Source of the DNA: Thermoproteota archaeon
Lineage (GTDB): Archaea; Korarchaeota; Korarchaeia; Korarchaeales; Korarchaeaceae
NCBI GenBank assembly: GCA_027492205.1
Contig: JAOZFN010000002.1
Coordinates: 1-45,705 of the forward strand
Direction: 5' to 3'
DNA length: 45,705 nt
Shown here: in pieces, positions 10,457 through 40,833 of the stretch
Numbering within the stretch: position 1 is the first letter of the stretch
Layout of the letters: the number at the start of each line of letters is the position of its first letter
Position numbers and translations under genes: made by a program
Notes under the pieces: generated by a model
Databases searched by the model: none
What the model saw: the letters and a program-made list of their open reading frames with translations, nothing else
Told to the model about the DNA's origin: nothing

Positions 10457-11023
10457 CTATTGACTCGACTCCACCATGCGGGCCAGCCTCCTAAGCGAGC
10501 CCTCGACGTCCCTCCAGTCCCACTCCAGAATCGGTACGTCCAAGACGCGGGCGAGTTCCTCCACGAACACTCCGGGTCCCGTGGCCCTTCGGTACTCCCC
10601 GGCCGCCCTGGGGTCCCCCATCCAGTCCCCGCTGCCGTGCTCGCTCACCCCGCAGGAGGGGCTCCCGTTCACGCCGACGAAGCCCAGCACCTCGTAGCCG
10701 TTCCTGAGGTACTCCCCGACCACCTCGGCGACCTCGGAGGCTATCCTGCGGCAGTGGGCCCTGAATCCGGGGTTGTCGAACTGCTCCTTGACTGCCCAGA
10801 ACCTCCTGAGCCCGTAGTGGGTGAGCTCGGGGCAGGGGAGCTGCACCATGCCCACACCCTCATCGACGAGGAGTTTCACGAGCTCCCCGACCGGTCCGGG
10901 CCTCCTGGCCTTGCCGAAGACCACGGAGTTCTGGTTGAGCAGGCAGTGAGCGAGCAGGATCACCCTCTTGGACCTTCTGTCCTTATAGCTTCGATCCAAC
11001 CCTTCCTCCCCCCTTATTCCCAC
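10457..11023 (-). CDS. TudS-related (DUF523/CD3072-like) Fe-S desulfidase
   Basis: RSKRVILLAHCLLNQNS, QLPCPE, GVNGSPSCGV, GVFVEEL. Confidence 0.8.
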   Translation of the reverse strand: MGIRGEEGLDRSYKDRRSKRVILLAHCLLNQNSVVFGKARRPGPVGELVKLLVDEGVGMVQLPCPELTHYGLRRFWAVKEQFDNPGFRAHCRRIASEVAEVVGEYLRNGYEVLGFVGVNGSPSCGVSEHGSGDWMGDPRAAGEYRRATGPGVFVEELARVLDVPILEWDWRDVEGSLRRLARMVESSQ

Positions 11024-11082
11024 TTAAAGTCCCCAAGTATCTGCTCAGCAGCGGCTCCGTTTCTCGATCGAGGAGATATTTT

Positions 11083-13128
11083 TCACTCTAGCAAGGTTAT
11101 GTTCTCCTGGCTAATAGCTTCTCTTCCTTCAGTGAAGGGTTCCAACCTTGAGACGATTATGATTTCATTTCTCTTGGAGGCTTCTTCATGTAATTTTTTC
11201 AGGAGTCTATGCACTCTAGTGTCATCTAGAAGTTCAGATATGGTATCTATGGTAAAGAGCGGTAAGTCCGGTACGATGACCTTTTTGATGACGTACGAGA
11301 GGATTACTGCCAGGACGCCTTTCTCGGCGTCTGACAAGGCTGTAAGAGGCGTAGGTGTTGTTGCGTTGGGCCTTAGGAGGATAAGTTCCCTAGTGGACAG
11401 ATCTAGCCTCATGTCTTCAAACTCAGCTAATTGTAGGAGATTAAAGTATTCCTTTAACTTTCTATTGATCTCATTCACTAACTCTATCCTAACAAGCTCA
11501 GTTCTGCGCTTGAAGTAATCTGCAAGGGACTGAGCCAGCTTTACTTTCTTTTCGAGCTGGATAAGCTCCTTCTCCTGATCCGCAAGTTGCTCAATTCTTG
11601 CTCTGATGGTAAGTAATTGCTCGTCAAGAGCCGACCTTCTTCTTTCTAGCTCATTGATTCGCTTTCTAACATTCTCGAGCCTCACGGCTTTTTCCTGTGG
11701 AATTTGCTTGAATAACTCTTCCATTATAGCTTCCTCTTTTTCATCAAGTTCCTTTAGTTCGTTATCAGTACTTCTGATTTCATTGTCAAGCTGATCAAGC
11801 TTCTTCTCTAGTACCCTCAGCTCACGCTCCTTCGTTTTAATATCTCTCTCTGTCCGTGTTAATTCTGTGTAATATTTACTCAATTCTTTTTTAAGACCCT
11901 CCTTTAGATAGCTTAATTCGGCCATAATTCGTCTTTTTTCCGACTCATAGAGAGCTTTCTCAGACGATAATTTCTTGTGTAAGGACTCCAATTTCCTGAG
12001 TTCTTCCTCGAGGTCCTCAACTTCGTGTTCAACAAACTCAGCTAAAGAGAATTCGTGTCCACAATTTGGACATTTTACTCTTCCTCTAATTGGCAGACCA
12101 CACCATTCGCATTTCGGCTGCTCCAGCTCCCTCTTCCTTCTACTAAGTATGTCTGATACCTCCGCCATTCTATCCCTTATCCCGGGTATCTTGATCCTAC
12201 CGTGCGGAGAGTCCTCCAGGTAACCATTCAATTCCCGCTCTATCTCTCTAATCTTACTTTGAATTTCAGAGTATTGTCTCTCTAAACTCTCGATTCTATG
12301 CTTAGAAGCTTCCTCCTCTTTTTTCACTCTCTCAACGGACCTCTCTAATTGGGTCTTCTTGGCTTTCAGATCTCCTATTTCTGCGCTCAGCGAGGCGTAT
12401 CGGGTCTGGATTTTACTTAACTCAGTTATCAGATTTCTTCGGATTCCCCTAAGCCTATTCCTATTTTCTCTAATTTGTGCTAACCTCTCTTCCTGTCGCC
12501 TAGCAAGCTCCTCGTAAGCGGCAAAATCGGGATCGGAAAGAAGTCTCGACTGTTCCTCATCGATCGATCTGATTTGTTCCTGAAGATCCTTTTCCAACTC
12601 TAAGTAGCTTTTCTGTCGTTCTCTAAATCTAGATACTGCAGACTCGTATGTAAAAGTTAAGTCCCGTGCGATATCCTCCGCAACCTTACTAATTAAATCT
12701 AGTTCTTTGACTTTTGAAAGACCCTCAATCCATTGAATGAGCCTATTAATGTCACCCGATACAATAGACTGAAAGATCGGAGACTCAAGCTCTAGAAAAG
12801 CTACGGAGGCAGCTTCTTTGCCCATGTAGAGATCGGTAATCAGCGCGGTTCCATTTGCTCTGACCTCGCTACCAACCCGAATCAGCTTTACAGAAGCCTC
12901 TCTTCCATCCATTTCCATTTCTACATGACCCGTCCTTTCGTACTCATTGAGCAGCCTGGACAGTTCTCCTTCATTAAGGGCCATTGTTGAACCTAACTTG
13001 ATAGCTTTTATGAGACTCGTTTTCCCAGACGCGTTAGGTCCGGATATTATATTTACTCCAGATGCGAATGAAAAGTCCCTCTGCCCTCGGAATATCCCAA
13101 TGTTACTAACTTCAACCTTTAACCTTAT
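11083..13128 (-). CDS. Archaea-specific SMC-related ATPase (Sph/ClsN-like), about 681 aa
   Basis: In-frame extension upstream of 12984 encodes RLKVEVSNIGIFRG...GVNIISGPNASGKTSLIKAI (Walker A); long coiled coils; central CEWC/CPNC; C-terminal LSDAEK signature and LFTIDTISE Walker-B-like motif. Confidence 0.85.
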   Translation of the reverse strand: MRLKVEVSNIGIFRGQRDFSFASGVNIISGPNASGKTSLIKAIKLGSTMALNEGELSRLLNEYERTGHVEMEMDGREASVKLIRVGSEVRANGTALITDLYMGKEAASVAFLELESPIFQSIVSGDINRLIQWIEGLSKVKELDLISKVAEDIARDLTFTYESAVSRFRERQKSYLELEKDLQEQIRSIDEEQSRLLSDPDFAAYEELARRQEERLAQIRENRNRLRGIRRNLITELSKIQTRYASLSAEIGDLKAKKTQLERSVERVKKEEEASKHRIESLERQYSEIQSKIREIERELNGYLEDSPHGRIKIPGIRDRMAEVSDILSRRKRELEQPKCEWCGLPIRGRVKCPNCGHEFSLAEFVEHEVEDLEEELRKLESLHKKLSSEKALYESEKRRIMAELSYLKEGLKKELSKYYTELTRTERDIKTKERELRVLEKKLDQLDNEIRSTDNELKELDEKEEAIMEELFKQIPQEKAVRLENVRKRINELERRRSALDEQLLTIRARIEQLADQEKELIQLEKKVKLAQSLADYFKRRTELVRIELVNEINRKLKEYFNLLQLAEFEDMRLDLSTRELILLRPNATTPTPLTALSDAEKGVLAVILSYVIKKVIVPDLPLFTIDTISELLDDTRVHRLLKKLHEEASKRNEIIIVSRLEPFTEGREAISQENITLLE

Positions 13129-13261
13129 TTTCTATCACCTCCCTAAGTCTCTTCTCGATGATTTCAGACACTCTTATGCTCTTTCCCGCGTAAGCCTTCA
13201 AGAGTTTTAAAAGTTCTTTCTCCAGCTCATCTAGTTCTTGTTCCTTAAACTCAATATTCAT
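13112..13261 (-). CDS. Small 49-aa helical protein, not in the ORF track
   Basis: ATG preceded by GGAGGTG; MNIEFKEQELDELEKELLKLLKAYAGKSIRVSEIIEKRLREVIENKVKG; overlaps both neighbouring genes. Confidence 0.65.
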   Translation of the reverse strand: MNIEFKEQELDELEKELLKLLKAYAGKSIRVSEIIEKRLREVIENKVKG

Positions 13262-13592
13262 TCAGGAACACCTCCAGTATCCTTTCATATCCTTCGTCCT
13301 CAGGATCGTCTGGAAGGGACCAGAGGCGAGCAGGCAGATCTCCCTTTAAAAGTTGTCTTAAGCAATAAACCTCAATTAGCGGGTGATACGTATCGAAGAA
13401 TTTCCTTAACGCCCACAAGCCTCGTCCTGTGAGTTCTAGGCCTATGTAGACCTCCCCAAACTTTGGAATCCTGTCTCCGCCGCACAGAATTTTGCATGAG
13501 TCTTTACATCTATTTAGGATACTTTTAAGCTTTTTCTTATCTTCTTCATCCCTTAGGTAGATTTCTACTAGTATTCCAATCAACTCGAGCAC
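13251..13592 (-). CDS. Hypothetical protein (113 aa) of the island operon
   Basis: ORF tightly packed between the AAA gene and the 49-aa gene, with island codon usage. Confidence 0.7.
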   Translation of the reverse strand: MLELIGILVEIYLRDEEDKKKLKSILNRCKDSCKILCGGDRIPKFGEVYIGLELTGRGLWALRKFFDTYHPLIEVYCLRQLLKGDLPARLWSLPDDPEDEGYERILEVFLNEY

Positions 13593-13620
13593 CTCTCAGG
13601 TCCTACCAATAGCTTTTACC

Positions 13621-14424
13621 TCAAAGAGTTCGATTTGAAGAAGCCGTTATATATTCAATATACCTCTCTGTTATGTATCTTCTGACATACCTAAATGTTC
13701 TCTTCGTTTCTTGGATTGAATCCAGATCATCTTTAAGATTAATGAGTATCTCGTTCGTAGTATTCGGATCGATTGACCATCGCCTGCATAACTCCCTTGC
13801 AAAACTTAAAAGAGCTTCTTTGTCTGGATTAGGAAACTTAACAAGATAAAATCTATCTAGCAAGGCCTCGTCAAGTAGATCTTCGCGATTAGTAATCAGT
13901 ATCGCTGCCTGGTTTGAAGTGTCTAATTGATCGATTTCGTGGAAGAAAACGTTCAGTTGAGTTATATACCATGTATCGAGCTTAACACCAAAGCTTCTTG
14001 TTAGGAATAAACCTTCCGCATCATCAAAGACGTATAAGACTCCGTAGCTTATGTTAATCCTTTTGATCTCTTCCGCTAACCGGCGGCCCCTTAAAAAAAG
14101 ACTTCTAATTTGCTTCTCAGTCTCGCCATATTTAGGAAATGCCAGATCGGCACAATCTCTATATATCACATACTCTTCTCCAGATCTTCTGGAGTACTCT
14201 AAGATCCCCAGCTCATTAGCTATTTGCCAGGCCATCCACGTCTTCCCGACCCCCGGTGGCCCACTGAAAACAAACCCCTTTATTCCGTCTTTTATTCCTT
14301 TTCTCCACTGATATTGTATAATTGAAGTTAACTTTATTAGCATTTTCCTGTGCCACTTTCCAGTGAATATCTGAAGAGCGTCTTTCGTCGGATATATGTT
14401 TAAACTTCCTCTATCTTCAGCCAT
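13621..14424 (-). CDS. Single-domain classical AAA+ ATPase
   Basis: Walker A GPPGVGKT, pore-loop-like FPKYGETE, Walker B VLYVFDDAE, SRH TNREDLLDEALLDRF. Confidence 0.88.
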   Translation of the reverse strand: MAEDRGSLNIYPTKDALQIFTGKWHRKMLIKLTSIIQYQWRKGIKDGIKGFVFSGPPGVGKTWMAWQIANELGILEYSRRSGEEYVIYRDCADLAFPKYGETEKQIRSLFLRGRRLAEEIKRINISYGVLYVFDDAEGLFLTRSFGVKLDTWYITQLNVFFHEIDQLDTSNQAAILITNREDLLDEALLDRFYLVKFPNPDKEALLSFARELCRRWSIDPNTTNEILINLKDDLDSIQETKRTFRYVRRYITERYIEYITASSNRTL

Positions 14425-14488
14425 AACGTCCCCCTTTCCAAAGCAACTTTCAGATATAATTTAAGTTCTAGTCAATAAGGTCTTCATT

Positions 14489-15523
14489 CTATCCGATCTC
14501 CCATCTTCCTCTTACTCTCTCTCTTAGTCTCTCTTTCAACCTATAGGCGAACTTGATCCATGGATCGGCAACATAATATACCATCCTCCCACCATGCTCT
14601 TTGTCATAAAACTTAGGTCTAGTCTTGTCCTTTGGTTTTAGAATTTTCATTAAATCTAACTTTTCATATATAAATCTCAGATTAGAGCTGCGCTTCGGTC
14701 TAATTTTTCTTGCCGCTTCGAAAATTACTCGAATGGGGAGTATAGGCCTAACATCTTCTACAATTTCAACTAACTCATTGAATAATCGGTCTGGATTTTC
14801 TATATTATGGTCTGACTTCAAGTGTTCTAAGAGTAGCTTTTTCTCATGGAGCCCATAGATCATGGAAGAGTCTCCACATAACCTGCATCTGTAGCCAGCG
14901 AGTTCGCGATAAAGATATGCGGGAAAAATATTTCCAGAGTCGTCTATAATGTCCATTAACGCCCTTATGAGAATTGTAAAATCCCTGATGTCAAAGTTAC
15001 GCGTTTTATAAATCGCCGCCAAGAGCTTACCAACAGACCTTTCCCCCCCAGCCTCCAAATCATCCCTAAGTTCTTGGGTACATTCAATAATGGTGACAAA
15101 TTCCTCACTATTCTCGTCATAACGCGAGTGGATGTGGATTAGTCCAGCCTCCTGAAAAGTTTCTAGAGCCTCTGATAGAGAGACGCCTTTGATCCCCTTC
15201 CACACACTCAATTCAATAGTTTCTATAGGTATTTCGTCAGAATGGCTGCACTGCAAATTTAGAAAATGGAGCAGCCGCATGTAAGGTGCCAACATCGGGT
15301 GACCCGGAGCCAATAGTGCGATGGACTTCATGATGATCTCCGCATCCTCGCTCGAGAAGTTGCCTTCAGACCCCTCTATAGCATCATACAAAACCTGATA
15401 GGTTGCATTCGCTATAGCACAACTTAGACACATATCTTTATCATCAAATATTACAAACTCACTCATCCGGACCTTTCTACCACATTGGGGACAGATTACT
15501 ACTTCCTCCCCTCCTTTTGTCAC
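14489..15523 (-). CDS. Hypothetical Zn-finger / wHTH-like protein (344 aa)
   Basis: N-terminal CPQC...CLSC; LSEALETFQEAGLIHI (wHTH-like); CRLC...HLKSDH (C2H2-like). Confidence 0.7.
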   Translation of the reverse strand: MTKGGEEVVICPQCGRKVRMSEFVIFDDKDMCLSCAIANATYQVLYDAIEGSEGNFSSEDAEIIMKSIALLAPGHPMLAPYMRLLHFLNLQCSHSDEIPIETIELSVWKGIKGVSLSEALETFQEAGLIHIHSRYDENSEEFVTIIECTQELRDDLEAGGERSVGKLLAAIYKTRNFDIRDFTILIRALMDIIDDSGNIFPAYLYRELAGYRCRLCGDSSMIYGLHEKKLLLEHLKSDHNIENPDRLFNELVEIVEDVRPILPIRVIFEAARKIRPKRSSNLRFIYEKLDLMKILKPKDKTRPKFYDKEHGGRMVYYVADPWIKFAYRLKERLRERVRGRWEIG

Positions 15524-15583
15524 GAGACAGTCGATATCAGACTTTTATTTATCCTCTGCTGTAGTGAACCATGTCACCAAGAA

Positions 15584-16549
15584 ATGATAAGACAAGTTCC
15601 AAAAACTTTCACATATTATGTGAGGAAATTAGATAAGTTATCCTTTAGACCACGTTCTGTTAAGAAATATTTCGTTGGAGCTGGAAAGAGCCGATTTGAT
15701 CCACTGATACTGGTTTTTTCAAAACTGGAGTTGAGCCGTCCTAAGTGGGTACGAAGGGTTATTCTAGACGCGGAGCAAGACGCCCTCGGGTTTGTGGAGT
15801 ACCCTCCCGCTCTAGCCCTTTCTCCTCGTATTAGGACGCTACGAAGGGCTATTTGGCAGCTGAAACAAGATGGAATCATCAACTCTGTTAAACTTGAGCC
15901 CCCCTCACAGGATTTAAAGCTTTACAAAACAATTAGAAGCCTAAAAATCCGCTTTTACAGAGAAGAAAAAAGGGAAATCGCTTTTGAAAGCTATAAATTC
16001 GTTCTCATCGACCCTCTCCAGTTAGTGGAGACTCAGGACGAATACTCATGCATAGCACTCGGAGTCTTAATGATTTTAGACTTTATTTTATGGAAGGGAG
16101 GAAGAATTCTGACGCAGGATATTGCTAACAAACTTGGGCTGAATGCAGATTTTGTAAACGCCGCTTTAGACCTTCTCTACAGCTTGGGTTTGACTTATTC
16201 TACTGCAAGTAGAGTTACGGTTAAGATCAGATTAGAGAATAAAAGTAAAATCGATGAGTATTTAAATGCGTATAAAGTAAAAATTGAGAAGATAGCCGAG
16301 TTCCTCAGAGAACAGTTTTATTACTACGCAAGCCTAGCTGGACTTTTAATAAATCAAAAAGTTCCATTATATGACGCAACAGGCTTTGCATCCTATTATG
16401 ATGAGGACTTGGACCTGGACCAAAAAATTCTGCTTAGATGTGTTAGAAAGTTTCCGGCAATAGTGAAAATGTTAATTGAAAGACATAATTTACTTCAAAG
16501 TCATCATGCGTTGCTATTACAAGACTTTGGAATACTAAAAGGACTTTGA
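15584..16549 (+). CDS. Hypothetical wHTH-containing protein divergent from the island operon
   Basis: ATG at 15584 after TTTTATTTA; LTQDIANKLGLNADFVNAALDLLYSLGL and LRRAIWQLKQDGII are wHTH-like. Confidence 0.65.
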   Translation: MIRQVPKTFTYYVRKLDKLSFRPRSVKKYFVGAGKSRFDPLILVFSKLELSRPKWVRRVILDAEQDALGFVEYPPALALSPRIRTLRRAIWQLKQDGIINSVKLEPPSQDLKLYKTIRSLKIRFYREEKREIAFESYKFVLIDPLQLVETQDEYSCIALGVLMILDFILWKGGRILTQDIANKLGLNADFVNAALDLLYSLGLTYSTASRVTVKIRLENKSKIDEYLNAYKVKIEKIAEFLREQFYYYASLAGLLINQKVPLYDATGFASYYDEDLDLDQKILLRCVRKFPAIVKMLIERHNLLQSHHALLLQDFGILKGL

Positions 16550-17135
16550 CGACACCATAGGTAATTAGAATTTATAAATTTCTTCTAATTTAATAAATAC
16601 ATATATATGTGAGAATTATGGACGCCTTTCTCAACGAAGGAACAGGGTAGTTGATGGAGGCCCTATTCCAAACTAAATATCGCCCGCGAAATATCATGTG
16701 ACGCGCAGCATATTTTCTGATCTCATGCGCCGCGAGGCCCTACCCCCCCCACCTTAACTCTGAACTCTGATTTACCTCTATCCTTCGTCTCTGGCCGATG
16801 CTTAGAGGATAGCAAGGGCCCCTACCTCCTGAGCCCTATTTTGGCTGAGATATTGTCGCAATTCCTGCCTGACATTAGCCAAACTTACGTGGCTGTGCAT
16901 TCAAGAGATGAAGGATATGGTGCCATGTGACCTAGCCTGGACTCCTCATTACCGCAACGGAGTAGCTCACCATCTCAAAGGCATACCCGGTGTCTTCGCA
17001 ATCTTACGCATGTTTATCGGGGCGGCCCCCGTCTTCTCAACTTGTTATGCCTACAAGACGGCGAAAAAGCTCAAAATAGGCATCAGGGCGGCCCCTCATC
17101 CTCTCAAAGTTATTTCAGACGCAGCAACAGTATGG

Positions 17136-17257
17136 TGGTGGGGCCGCAGGGACTTCCATCCGAACCTCGTTCGCAACCCAAACATATGAGGTTCGGATTT
17201 TGAACCCTGGCCAAGGGCTCCCGAAGCCCTCATCCTGCCAAGCTAGACCACGGCCCC
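17136..17257 (-). tRNA. tRNA-Pro(CGG) with a 46-nt T-loop (59/60) intron at 17153-17198
   Basis: Anticodon arm AGGGC-TTCGGGA-GCCCT; full BHB motif (TTCA/TGGA helix, AAA and AGT bulges, TCCGAACCTC/GAGGTTCGGA); splicing yields T-loop TTCAAAT; encoded CCA. Confidence 0.9.
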
Positions 17258-17589
17258 ACCGGTCGGGTCATGCCGGCATCCACTACTTAAAGCTTGAGTC
17301 GGGCATCGTGAGGATGCCCCGGTGCTAGTGTACTGCTGTCGCCTATGAGAGCCGCTCCCGCCACTTTGACATCCGGGGGTGGAACTGAAACTCAGCGGAA
17401 AGAGCATAAGAGGCGAGGAACAGCGCATATCTCCTAGAGGTAGATGGGAACCCGAACGTAGTTGAGAGGCGGCTGAAAGGGTAGAGATTGTTCTAGTAAC
17501 GTGCGAAGGGGAGGTCCCCCTCTTTTGGCTGAGCAAACTCGCGCGCTACAGCTACCCCAGGCAGCCGGGTCCGCCACGGTTCCAGCCAG

Positions 17590-18075
17590 ACTGGGTTCTA
17601 CTGCTGCGTGGCCGACCCGGTAAACCTGCTGTGGGAGAAGTCCGGCGGGGACCTGTACCCCTGCGCGGTTCACACGACCCTCGTTGGCCACGGGTGGGAC
17701 CACGCCTCTGGCAACCCGAACTACGTCTACGACCCCATATGCGGGTGGAGGCCCGGGGGCGTACTCGCTGGGAAAGGACTACCTTGGAATTTGCTACCTG
17801 ACAAGCGATTACGATAGGTACCACGTGAGGCTCTGGAAGGTCCATAAGGGCGGGTACGGCGGGGTCGATGTCGTGGGGAGGTCCACGGCGGACACTTGGC
17901 TACACGAGGCAGTCCTCTACGAGGAGGCTGAAGGCGAGGCGTCCGACGCCTTCTGGGGCTGGGACTACGCCGGGCAGGTCTACCTGCACAACGCCGAGGG
18001 GAGCCCCGGGGACCCAGAGCACTACAACGACGGCTGGGCGCCGAAGTTGCCCTACCCCCCGGGCCGACTCCCGCC
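17590..18075 (+). pseudogene. Degraded/frameshifted LssY-C-like extracellular domain
   Basis: DPVNLLWE in one frame and DRYHVRLW...HEAVLYEEAE...YNDGWA in another, joined at the G run 17755-17759; no clean start. Confidence 0.45.
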
Positions 18076-25081: not shown

Positions 25082-25198
25082 GCCGGGGTAGCTCAGACTG
25101 GTCAGAGCGCCGGACTCATAACTGGGTCAAGCGCGGCGGCTCCCGGCGCTCGGTGGGAGATCCGGAGGTCGCGGGTTCAAGTCCCGCCCCCGGCACCA
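25082..25198 (+). tRNA. tRNA-Met(CAU), elongator type, with a 39-nt intron (25121-25159) at 37/38
   Basis: GCCGGGGTAGCTCAG..., CCGGA-CTCATA|intron|A-TCCGG, BHB (CTCA/TGGG), encoded CCA. Confidence 0.9.
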
Positions 25199-40141: not shown

Positions 40142-40609
40142 TCAGGGGATGACCTCGAGCCCGGGCACCCTCCTGAAGTCAGAGTCGAACGTCGCCATCT
40201 TGAGCCCGAGCCTGAGGCTCACCGACGCGTGCACGGCGTCCGCTGGGAGCAGGCCCGCCCTCCGCACCAGGTCCAGCGCGACCTCCCAGTCGACCGGGAG
40301 AATCTTCACCCACGAGAGCCCGCCCATGCCCCTCAGGTAGCGACTGAACTCCTCGACCGGCTCGAGGCACCTCTCCCTGAACTCTCCGTCCCTGAGAAGC
40401 CTCCTCCTCAGCTCCAGGGGTCCAGCGACCCCGAGCTCCGAGGCCTTGGCCGCCAGGAGCTTGTAGGCCACCTCCTCCGCGACCATCGCGGTGACGCCGG
40501 CCTCCTCCTCTCCCTCCTCCACCGCGCTCAAGATCTCCTCGGCCTCGTCGGCCCGGGGCCCGTCGAGCAGGAGGTGCAGGAAGACCGAGGAGTCAAGGAA
40601 GATCCTCAA
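40142..40609 (-). CDS. VapC PIN-domain toxin
   Basis: IFLDSSVF, VAEEV, LLPADAVHA, ATFDSDFRRV. Confidence 0.9.
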   Translation of the reverse strand: MRIFLDSSVFLHLLLDGPRADEAEEILSAVEEGEEEAGVTAMVAEEVAYKLLAAKASELGVAGPLELRRRLLRDGEFRERCLEPVEEFSRYLRGMGGLSWVKILPVDWEVALDLVRRAGLLPADAVHASVSLRLGLKMATFDSDFRRVPGLEVIP

Positions 40610-40833
40610 CGGGCGCCCTCCCAGTAGAGCTCCTCCAGCTCCTCCATGGAGAGCCTGGGCCTGACTATGCCCCTCATCCTCCTGGTCATCCTCCCCCTCT
40701 CCCTGGCCAGGTACATCCTGAGAGCCCTCCTCACGACCTCGGCCCTGGAGACGCCGAGGCTTCGGGCCACCCTGTCTAGGAGCCTGCCCGTCTCCTCGTC
40801 GAGCCTGACGAGCACCTGCATCTTCGATATCAT
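40606..40833 (-). CDS. CopG/RHH antitoxin
   Basis: VLVRLDEETGRLLDRVARSLGVSRAEVVRRAL; GATATC-like repeats over the promoter. Confidence 0.85.
   Translation of the reverse strand: MISKMQVLVRLDEETGRLLDRVARSLGVSRAEVVRRALRMYLARERGRMTRRMRGIVRPRLSMEELEELYWEGAR

Follow-up and report, generated by a model that had tools for sequence, protein, structure and literature searches.

We analysed a stretch of 45,705 nucleotides (the window, to which all coordinates refer unless another contig or locus is named) from contig JAOZFN010000002.1 of assembly GCA_027492205.1, a Thermoproteota archaeon of the family Korarchaeaceae whose genome of 1.94 Mb we call G000. Our subject is an AT-rich island in the window in which five genes on the minus strand encode, in this order, a zinc (Zn) protein, an AAA+ ATPase, two small proteins that we call p113 and p49, and a coiled-coil ATPase that groups with the ASRPs (archaea-specific SMC-related proteins), where SMC stands for structural maintenance of chromosomes. 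The island and the genes of the operon are as follows (ABC, ATP-binding cassette; ORF, open reading frame; GC, guanine-plus-cytosine content).

11006..17133, no strand: AT-rich island of ~6.1 kb, delimited by homology breaks and a drop in GC; horizontally acquired
14489..15523, minus strand: 344-aa Zn protein (ZnA type), from the invariant residues of alignment A3 and an AlphaFold2 (AF2) model
13621..14424, minus strand: stand-alone classical-type AAA+ ATPase, 267 aa, from Pfam PF00004
13251..13592, minus strand: p113, a 113-aa alpha/beta protein, from a family of ~110 aa upstream of the small ORF (alignment A4)
13112..13261, minus strand: p49, a helical protein of 49 aa; its stop overlaps the region where the ASRP starts
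11083..13128, minus strand: ASRP-type SMC-like ABC ATPase, 681 codons, from a match to NCBIfam NF045487, motifs and alignments

The frames are separated by 64 nt (between the 344- and 267-aa genes) and 28 nt (between the 267- and 113-aa genes) and then overlap by 11 and 17 nt. A preliminary description of this DNA had spoken of five tightly packed, co-oriented genes of these sizes, and this was borne out, the figure of 681 aa requiring an ATA start codon.

The ATPase at the end of the operon matches the ASRP model NF045487 over model positions 1-592 of 593 with 236.4 bits and an E value of 6.2e-70 (235.7 bits in the genome search). Because this score falls short of the curated cut-off of 300 bits, we file the protein as a divergent ASRP relative or subfamily. 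All ten of its aligned relatives (10/10) match the model as well, and SMC and Rad50 models reach no more than 52 bits on the island protein. We read its motifs against the usual conventions (ABC signature LSGGQ, Walker B hhhhDE, AAA RPGRFD) and the usual Rad50 hook consensus. Counted in the 681-aa reading, residues 30-37 form the Walker A motif GPNASGKT, which precedes the first canonical start codon. A coiled coil of ~400 residues, with Pfam and PDB coiled-coil matches on both sides, carries the zinc hook CEWCG at mid-coil and a second CPNCG; hook residues C340, C343 and G344 are invariant in the ten aligned sequences. The signature is LSDAEK and the Rad50-like D-loop is LLDD-R. In the Walker B motif (...IDT), Thr is found in place of the catalytic Glu. 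Across the clade this position, next to the Asp, is occupied by Thr or Ser; type-2 ASRPs have Glu there and a Haloarcula ASRP has Gln. For Yoshinaga et al., the defining features of the family are the two Walker motifs (A and B), a zinc hook and a coiled coil (PMC9389158). Judged from its sequence, the SMC-like protein is a divergent member of the ASRP (ClsN/Sph) family, which the preliminary description had given as background only; its label SMC-like stands, and ASRP is now the family. In genomes of the same genus we found weak ASRP matches (best E values of 1e-19 to 4e-21), the 13 matches listed all being partial and to ORFs of 578-922 aa.

The operon is rare, and its gene order is conserved. 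A word-based search of 5.8 billion proteins returned six proteins of the ASRP clade and six of the Zn family, the window's own counted in each. When 1.84 billion representatives were scanned with a hidden Markov model profile of the Zn family, 18 family-type single-stretch matches were found among the best 150 listed, and nearly all the others on that list were multi-finger C2H2 arrays. Of 43 genomes of the phylum, only G000 itself has the Zn family. In metagenomes, a scan turned up 20 loci, and ASRPs of the island clade are encoded in 11 of them (L014-L024). The full order, which is ZnA, its paralogue ZnB, the AAA+ ATPase, a protein of ~110 aa, one of ~52 aa and the ASRP, is found in L014, L016, L019, L022 and L023; L017 lacks ZnB, like the window, and L015 and L018 end upstream, the retained part keeping the order. 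The operon gene order is thereby found in eight metagenome contigs. An AAA+ gene lies upstream of the ASRP in nine of the ten informative clade loci (L015 is cut off, and L024 has no AAA+ gene). The Zn family is present in six of seven (L015, L018, L021 and L024 being uninformative), with non-homologous proteins of 278 and 296 aa in its place in L020. ZnB occurs in five of the six other Zn-bearing loci, and a small ORF like p49 holds the same position in eight loci. Relative to the window, the AAA+ ATPases are 46-51% identical, the ASRPs 27-30% and the Zn proteins 17-26%, and these low values with the order kept indicate that the gene order survived long divergence. A functional linkage of SMC-like, AAA+ and Zn-finger genes is thus supported by their co-occurrence and conserved order in other loci; the preliminary description had named a lack of co-occurrence in other genomes as refuting its reading, and the reading withstood this check. 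The related loci come from few sample series and may not be independent, and most of the contigs are short, which makes the context statistics thin.

To describe the mobility of the operon, we compared its composition and its surroundings with those of related DNA. Operon GC ranges from 34 to 52%. It departs from that of the flanks by 8-17 points in L023 and by at least 10 points in four other loci (L017, where the operon is the GC-richer part, L018, L019 and L022) as well as in the window. Such a mismatch is seen in five of the nine clade loci with usable flanks, as repeated horizontal transfer would yield. In the window, GC is 39-45% across 11001-17000 and 60-70% over most of the remainder (1-kb windows), and the island as a whole has ~42% GC in a 63% GC genome. 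For G000 the mean is 63.3% with a standard deviation of 3.6 (2-kb windows), and the island is both the longest (7 kb) and the lowest (40.1%) of five G000 stretches below 50% GC. The features that border the operon and the island are the following.

10457..11023, minus strand: host gene of the left flank, 188 aa, GC-rich; its 5' end is the left island border
15584..16549, plus strand: divergent 321-aa ORF, counted from the first ATG (354 aa from TTG 15485, 15485-16549)
16550..17135, no strand: non-coding spacer of intermediate GC at the right island end, with no conserved ORF and no Rfam match besides the tRNA
17136..17259, minus strand: host tRNA-Pro(CGG) with a T-loop insert of ~45 nt; its 3' end touches the island

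In four genomes of the same genus, homology to the window ends at 10975-11005 and resumes at 17126-17134. The left-flank DNA is 77-95% identical to these genomes up to 10975-11005 (89-95% for G001). The equivalent site holds 203 bp in G004, about 1.5 kb in G003 (estimated from match coordinates) and an unrelated 1181-bp segment of 58% GC in G001, and the spacer at 16550-17135 has no homology to the G001 or G004 spacers. These variable fillings of a tRNA-proximal site mark an accessory-gene hotspot, and the 6.1 kb in G000 are an acquisition. Horizontal acquisition and an AT-rich composition relative to the host, both claimed in the preliminary description, are thus upheld, the former by the homology breaks, the differing site contents and the restriction of the Zn family to one of the phylum's genomes. 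Taken together, these data make it very probable that the island carries a real, mobile and conserved ASRP-AAA+ operon.

The alternative filling in G001 (G001:C30; L039 2208-3388) consists of two overlapping ORFs with weak matches to VapC26 and AbrB/MazE. The best PDB sequence matches of these ORFs are VapC26 near full length (E 0.021) and AbrB/MazE/SpoVT (E 0.2-0.7), so that the segment is probably, from such weak similarities, a VapBC-type toxin-antitoxin pair.

We also searched for the operon proteins in virus and plasmid collections. The AAA+ ATPase has no tblastn match in 50,697 phage records, and no relative could be confirmed when IMG/VR was scanned for patterns from the alignments of the AAA+ ATPase and the ASRP. 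Plasmid matches to the ASRP are confined to the N-termini of three haloarchaeal plasmid ASRPs. An origin from a virus or plasmid accordingly has no support in the phage records or IMG/VR, absences that hold for those collections.

The AAA+ ATPase has a single AAA domain, which matches PF00004 with 50 bits (cut-off 21.2), and its nearest solved relatives in the PDB are VAT, Cdc48, Mpa and NSF. It has the Walker A motif GPPGVGKT, sensor-1 Asn179 and Arg191. Its Walker B motif is FDDAE in all seven family members (7/7), and alignment with VAT places Asp135 at the position of the catalytic Glu, and Tyr99-Gly in the pore loop; the position expected to hold the first Arg in RPGRF is taken by Lys or Leu. 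An Asp-Asp Walker B argues for slow turnover, and both ATPases of the operon have non-canonical catalytic residues. Of the earlier label AAA+ unfoldase, the first part is therefore confirmed and the second is insecure, to be used as a hypothesis only.

From the N-terminus, the 344-aa protein comprises a C4 zinc ribbon, a winged helix (WH) and a C2H2 finger, after which come another WH-like domain and a C-terminal helix that is basic. The Zn ligands C11, C14, C32, C35, C213, C216, H234 and H239 are invariant in the 12 sequences of alignment A3. Sequence searches recognise the C2H2 finger only, and the AF2 model (pLDDT, the model's confidence score, 77.3) adds the WH domains. When residues 71-165 were compared by VIA-align, this WH gave Z scores of 8-9 to many WH proteins, including MarR/SarA regulators, which is a generic resemblance; kleisin and kite WH domains are also near (Z 8.6 for Scc1-C, 8.3 for JetA and 7.8 for Nse1-3-4). 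A Foldseek search of the model against the PDB gave no match at an E value of 0.001 or better. The zinc-ribbon, WH and C2H2 domains, partly predicted, would point to nucleic-acid binding. For p113, the AF2 model (pLDDT 82.8) has a ferredoxin-like domain plus helices, with a best VIA Z score of 9.9 to a generic match, and there is no Pfam, NCBIfam, PHROG, PADLOC or PDB sequence match. The p49 protein is 24-33% identical to 51-57-aa ORFs elsewhere with four invariant columns (alignment A5), which makes these weak sequence equivalents.

The ASRP gene of the window has an unusual start. Its frame (11083-13128) is open for 681 codons from stop to stop, and the first ATG, GTG or TTG lies at 12984 and would give a protein of 633 aa that begins downstream of the Walker A motif. 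The ATA codon at 13126-13128 aligns with the N-terminal Met of the eight metagenome homologues, which have ATG there. On the minus strand at 13112-13131, the ASRP frame opens three codons ahead of this ATA, and the next 48 codons include no ATG, GTG or TTG. P0002, an ASRP homologue with 62% identity, is also annotated from an internal position, so we infer that a non-canonical or re-initiation start may be shared. With ATA for the start ATG and one of two Zn paralogues only, this island copy may be attenuated.

Some related loci have a variant operon, located at 308-6886 in L020, in L021, and at 1555-6771 in L062 (G014:C47). L020 and L021 have two unrelated proteins of ~280-300 aa, no ~52-aa ORF and two tandem ASRPs. 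Besides the two larger proteins, which lack Zn motifs, the variant encodes an AAA+ ATPase 33-42% identical to the Zn-type AAA+, a protein of ~120 aa and an ASRP whose Walker B is the canonical Asp-Glu; the further ASRP that comes after it in L020 and L021 belongs to the Asp-Thr type. We considered the 278- and 296-aa proteins as members of the Zn family and rejected this (hhalign probability <1%). In G014, a genome of the same taxonomic family, the order is 283 aa, 297 aa, AAA+, 121 aa and an ASRP that scores 398.6 bits, above the cut-off, so the AAA+ partnership extends to bona fide ASRPs. L024 (1-2635) is the sole informative locus that breaks the association: the clade ASRP lies at the contig end, an amidoligase-like gene and three ORFs without assignment lie upstream, and there is no AAA+ gene within 2.4 kb.

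Two neighbourhoods contain genes of known defence types. In L023, the operon is in an AT-rich stretch of a contig that also has ordinary metabolic genes, and PADLOC identifies a Type IIG restriction-modification gene (362 bits) at a distance of 3.1 kb. A second ASRP of G014 (380 bits; L063 7285-11667, G014:C11) follows genes for a DndC-like PAPS-reductase (95.5 bits) and a DndB-like protein (55.2 bits). ORFs of 123 and 45 aa precede this ASRP, and a divergent cluster with a DUF1156 DNA methylase adjoins. By these gene assignments, L063 could be a Dnd-like system built on an ASRP in place of DndD. The 123- and 45-aa ORFs were examined as relatives of p113 and p49, and hhalign found no relation, a comparison of low sensitivity with a single sequence on one side.

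To place the operon among known systems, we compared each component with their defining proteins. With the ASRPs ClsN and Sph1/2/3 the island protein shares the end-to-end NF045487 match, an N-terminal Walker A, a C-terminal Walker B and signature, the ~400-residue coiled coil with an apical CxxCG hook, and a patchy distribution in archaea. It differs from them in its score under 300, its Asp-Thr Walker B, the second CxxC after the hook, and its place in a conserved operon with AAA+, Zn/WH and two small proteins, whereas section 7 of the family paper finds no consensus among ASRP flanking genes (PMC9389158).

Lamassu and related ABC-3C systems resemble the operon in having a zinc-hook ABC ATPase of ~650 aa without the Walker-B Glu, small upstream proteins and mobile islands. 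LmuB itself, at ~650 aa, has a zinc hook, mostly carries Gln where the Walker-B Glu would be, and is preceded by a small middle component (PMC10586767). The PADLOC LmuB model (PDLC03859) matches the ASRP at residues 225-611 with 50.2 bits and E 5.9e-14, much of it coiled coil and far weaker than the ASRP match. Unlike Lamassu, the island has an AAA+ and a Zn/WH gene upstream, its ATPase is far nearer to ASRP than to LmuB, and no LmuA-type effector is matched by PADLOC, Pfam or NCBIfam in any island gene.

The ATPases of Dnd and of the CxC-ABC systems (PbeABCD) have an obligate partner in DndE, a DNA-binding protein of ~110-125 aa, and often a small protein that evolves fast as well (PMC10853773). 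The layout here is the same: the coiled-coil ABC ATPase is encoded together with a partner of this size range, a small protein of fast evolution and further genes that vary, and the related G014 ASRP sits with DndB- and DndC-like genes. The hook, however, is CxxC and not CxC, and the island has no HKD-helicase, DndA or DndC. The DndD model TIGR03185 gives 27.4 bits on the ASRP against a cut-off of 245.85, and PADLOC DndD and PbeC give 26-29 bits. The p113 protein has no sequence match to DndE; its predicted fold is ferredoxin-like and not recognisably a double ribbon-helix-helix (RHH), for which the fold comparison leaves room.

A CxxCG zinc hook and an ABC head with a Rad50-like D-loop region recall Rad50-Mre11 and SbcCD, from which the ASRP differs by a coiled coil half as long. 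Rad50 models give 30-46 bits against cut-offs of 700-1087, and no island gene matches an Mre11/SbcD phosphoesterase. In canonical SMC-ScpAB, a hinge stands where the ASRP has its zinc hook; the SMC models, with their scores of at most 52 bits, have cut-offs of 567-729, and neither ScpA nor ScpB has a family match in the island. For Wadjet, PADLOC found no JetA, JetB or JetD, and JetC gave coiled-coil matches of at most 36 bits to the ASRP only; the resemblance of the Zn-protein WH to JetA is generic (Z 8.0-8.3). A single-domain AAA+ that serves as dedicated partner of a sensor-type protein is also known from TRIP13-HORMA (CBASS) and IetA-IetS, and PADLOC gives weak IetA and TRIP13 matches of 32-33 bits on the AAA+ ATPase. 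This protein is nearer to Cdc48, VAT and Mpa, however, with its Asp-Asp Walker B, and no HORMA, cyclase or IetS was found. Since the defining partners are absent, membership of Lamassu, Wadjet, Rad50-Mre11, SMC-ScpAB, IetAS and CBASS fails. The preliminary description had recognised no Mre11, kleisin/ScpAB, JetD or Lamassu effector and no named system, and both statements agree with what Pfam, PADLOC, NCBIfam and the literature gave. In the literature searched, which did not cover supplementary tables such as Supplementary Table 1 of PMC9389158 (ASRP neighbours), there is no description of an ASRP-AAA+ or Zn-finger operon.

By analogy with these systems, we consider it an evenly balanced proposition that the operon is a mobile, Lamassu- or Dnd-like DNA-surveillance module. 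A defence-type function, argued in the same way, is a tentative call that stays a little short of even. A role in defence or conflict is favoured by the operon being mobile and rare, by its partners evolving fast, and by the presence of restriction-modification and Dnd-like genes among the neighbours. In such a module, an ASRP dimer joined at the zinc hook would bind ATP and engage its heads on DNA. Because the catalytic base is missing from the Asp-Thr Walker B, the dimer would hardly hydrolyse ATP and would stay locked, clamping or marking particular DNA. The p113 and p49 proteins, probably translationally coupled to the ASRP, may sit on the heads as 'middle components', and the Zn/WH proteins may bind or bridge to DNA and supply recognition. 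The AAA+ ring could be the output, acting on a target, or a reset device that dismantles the locked complex. The likeliest purpose would be surveillance of foreign DNA, in defence or in conflict between elements. That the operon stands for a new class of SMC-like machine, in which a hydrolysis-deficient zinc-hook ABC ATPase locks on DNA, an AAA+ ATPase reads out or recycles it, Zn/WH/C2H2 proteins confer specificity, and such operons, moving between thermophilic archaea, could be the mobile stock from which chromosomal ASRPs such as coalescin were domesticated, is an idea we regard as somewhat unlikely.

Several observations weigh against a surveillance module. No effector (nuclease, protease or NADase) is recognisable in any conserved gene, and PADLOC matches across the island are only weak and generic (LmuB 50 bits; IetA/TRIP13 ~33 bits). 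Defence neighbours were found at one of the 11 clade loci (L023) and at the G014 locus, most contigs being too short to judge. The ASRPs with described functions do other things: ClsN organises the chromosome (PMC11344861) and Sph3 controls cell shape (PMC10869688). The two ends of the island have in common no att-type direct repeat of the tRNA 3' end and no terminal inverted repeat of at least 9 nt, and no integrase family match was found among the island ORFs checked, so that site-specific integration gained no support as the route of entry. Lastly, without a canonical ASRP start, without ZnB and with an Asp-Asp Walker B in the AAA+ ATPase, the activity of this copy is uncertain.

The alternatives differ in what they make of the ASRP. 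If the operon served DNA organisation or partition, the ASRP would compact, bridge or segregate host or element DNA in the manner of ClsN, with the Zn/WH proteins as loaders or adaptors and the AAA+ ATPase as unloader. ASRP (ClsN/Sph) is by far the best family match, no toxic effector is encoded, and the WH of the Zn protein is roughly as similar to the WH domains of kleisin and kite proteins as to transcription factors; a review also proposes that ClsN came from an integrated extrachromosomal element, the patchy distribution of ASRPs hinting at the same (PMC11344861). The WH similarity is generic, however, and replication, partition and integrase genes lie alongside the operon in none of the loci examined. 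The gene set is also accessory, being confined to that single genome of the phylum and absent from the four same-genus genomes, and is therefore dispensable for chromosome biology in the lineage. On balance we find this reading unlikely, though it is the chief rival of the surveillance module. A role in the cytoskeleton or cell shape, like that of Sph3 with RdfA or of arcadin-4 with crenactin, would draw on the ASRP-type Sph3, which is needed for rod shape and is usually encoded beside rdfA (PMC10869688), and on a Haloarcula plasmid where rdfA lies directly upstream of an ASRP gene. RdfA was rejected as a relative of p113 or of the Zn proteins, however (hhalign probability <1%), the arcadin-4 model gives 26.9 bits against a cut-off of 860, the island has no actin or tubulin homologue, and zinc-ribbon, WH and C2H2 domains suggest nucleic-acid binding, all of which makes a shape role highly improbable.

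We judge a DNA-modification module of Dnd type, in which the ASRP and a small-protein dyad would scan DNA for a modification enzyme, to be very unlikely for this operon. The idea comes from L063, where an ASRP lies with PAPS-reductase, DndB-like, 123-aa and 45-aa genes, and from the pairing of DndD and CxC-ABC ATPases with DndE and a small fast-evolving protein (PMC10853773). Neither in the island nor in the eight Zn-type loci, however, does the operon include DndA, DndC or a methylase; the DndD score is far under its cut-off, p113 is predicted to be ferredoxin-like and not two RHH repeats, and the small ORFs of G014 have no hhalign relation to p113 or p49. That the genes are a decaying passenger, left over from a module that was functional in the past and is not expressed any more as a working system in G000, is suggested by the ATA codon in place of the start ATG, by a first canonical start that deletes Walker A, by the missing ZnB, and by the ~590 bp of non-coding DNA and the ORF without relatives that fill the rest of the island. 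Against decay, none of the five frames is broken, the ASRP frame staying open over 681 codons in DNA of 42% GC, and the invariant residues of the Zn, AAA+ and ASRP families are all kept. L017 likewise lacks ZnB, and the internal annotation of P0002 hints that a non-canonical start may be shared. We thus regard decay as quite unlikely, and a surveillance module is the reading that we carry forward.

ASRPs are the least understood branch of the SMC superfamily. One of them, ClsN, is essential and shapes chromosome compartments in Sulfolobales (PMC11344861). In the literature searched, the only conserved ASRP partner is RdfA, beside haloarchaeal Sph proteins. The candidate partners that the island supplies for one ASRP clade, a defined and conserved set, are an AAA+ ATPase, a pair of small proteins and one or two proteins of the Zn/WH type; the set is thereby tied to mobile DNA. 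With few genes, it becomes testable what ASRPs target, with which partners, and whether chromosomal ASRPs came from mobile conflict systems. An SMC-like clamp poor in hydrolysis that is naturally paired with an AAA+ remodeller would also add a new design to the immunity systems based on SMC proteins.

The divergent 321-aa ORF is outside the conserved operon. The word-based search of 5.8 billion proteins found only the ORF itself, and it has no family or PDB match. The only hints are to Pfam RPA_C (E 0.061) and PADLOC LmuC (E 0.0099), so the ORF described earlier was retained and its winged helix-turn-helix label was not. The ORF was also considered as an inverted ZnB paralogue and rejected (hhalign probability 0.3%).

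At the right border, the tRNA 3' end noted in the preliminary description does adjoin the island, with its position corrected. The ARAGORN call for tRNA-Pro(CGG) at 17185-17259 covers the 5' part only; the true 3' end with CCA is at 17136, and the 3' exon (17136-17152) matches the 3' end of tRNA-Pro(TGG) (repeat D10). The 124-nt stretch folds into a cloverleaf with an extra T-loop hairpin (-66.7 kcal/mol, z -4.9), and we take the T-loop insert to be an archaeal-type intron. The Rfam tRNA model does not call this tRNA at the gathering threshold, and Rfam has no family at E 1 or better in 16500-18000 besides the tRNA-like match. Adjacency to a tRNA was rejected as a general trait, since none of the 11 related loci (0/11) has a tRNA adjoining the operon; in L023, one ARAGORN call lies 2.4 kb off, within an ORF matching F420 ligase.

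A few further observations concern the surroundings. The 188-aa product of the left flank has a weak Pfam match to 2-thiouracil desulfurase (17.7 bits, under the cut-off). On the 5' side of the tRNA, positions 17260-17700 are 92-95% identical to G001, above the protein-coding left flank (89-95%), and we saw no convincing long ORF in this stretch. Second in AT-richness within G000 is a spot (G000:C17:75500-77300, 37-43% GC) that holds a lone ORF of 524 aa that resembles membrane proteins and is unrelated to the island. Elsewhere in the window, a 114-nt Rfam tRNA match at 25082-25195 and a 92-nt ARAGORN tRNA-Pro(AGG) at 40585-40676, the latter without an Rfam report, are both probably long tRNAs that contain introns.

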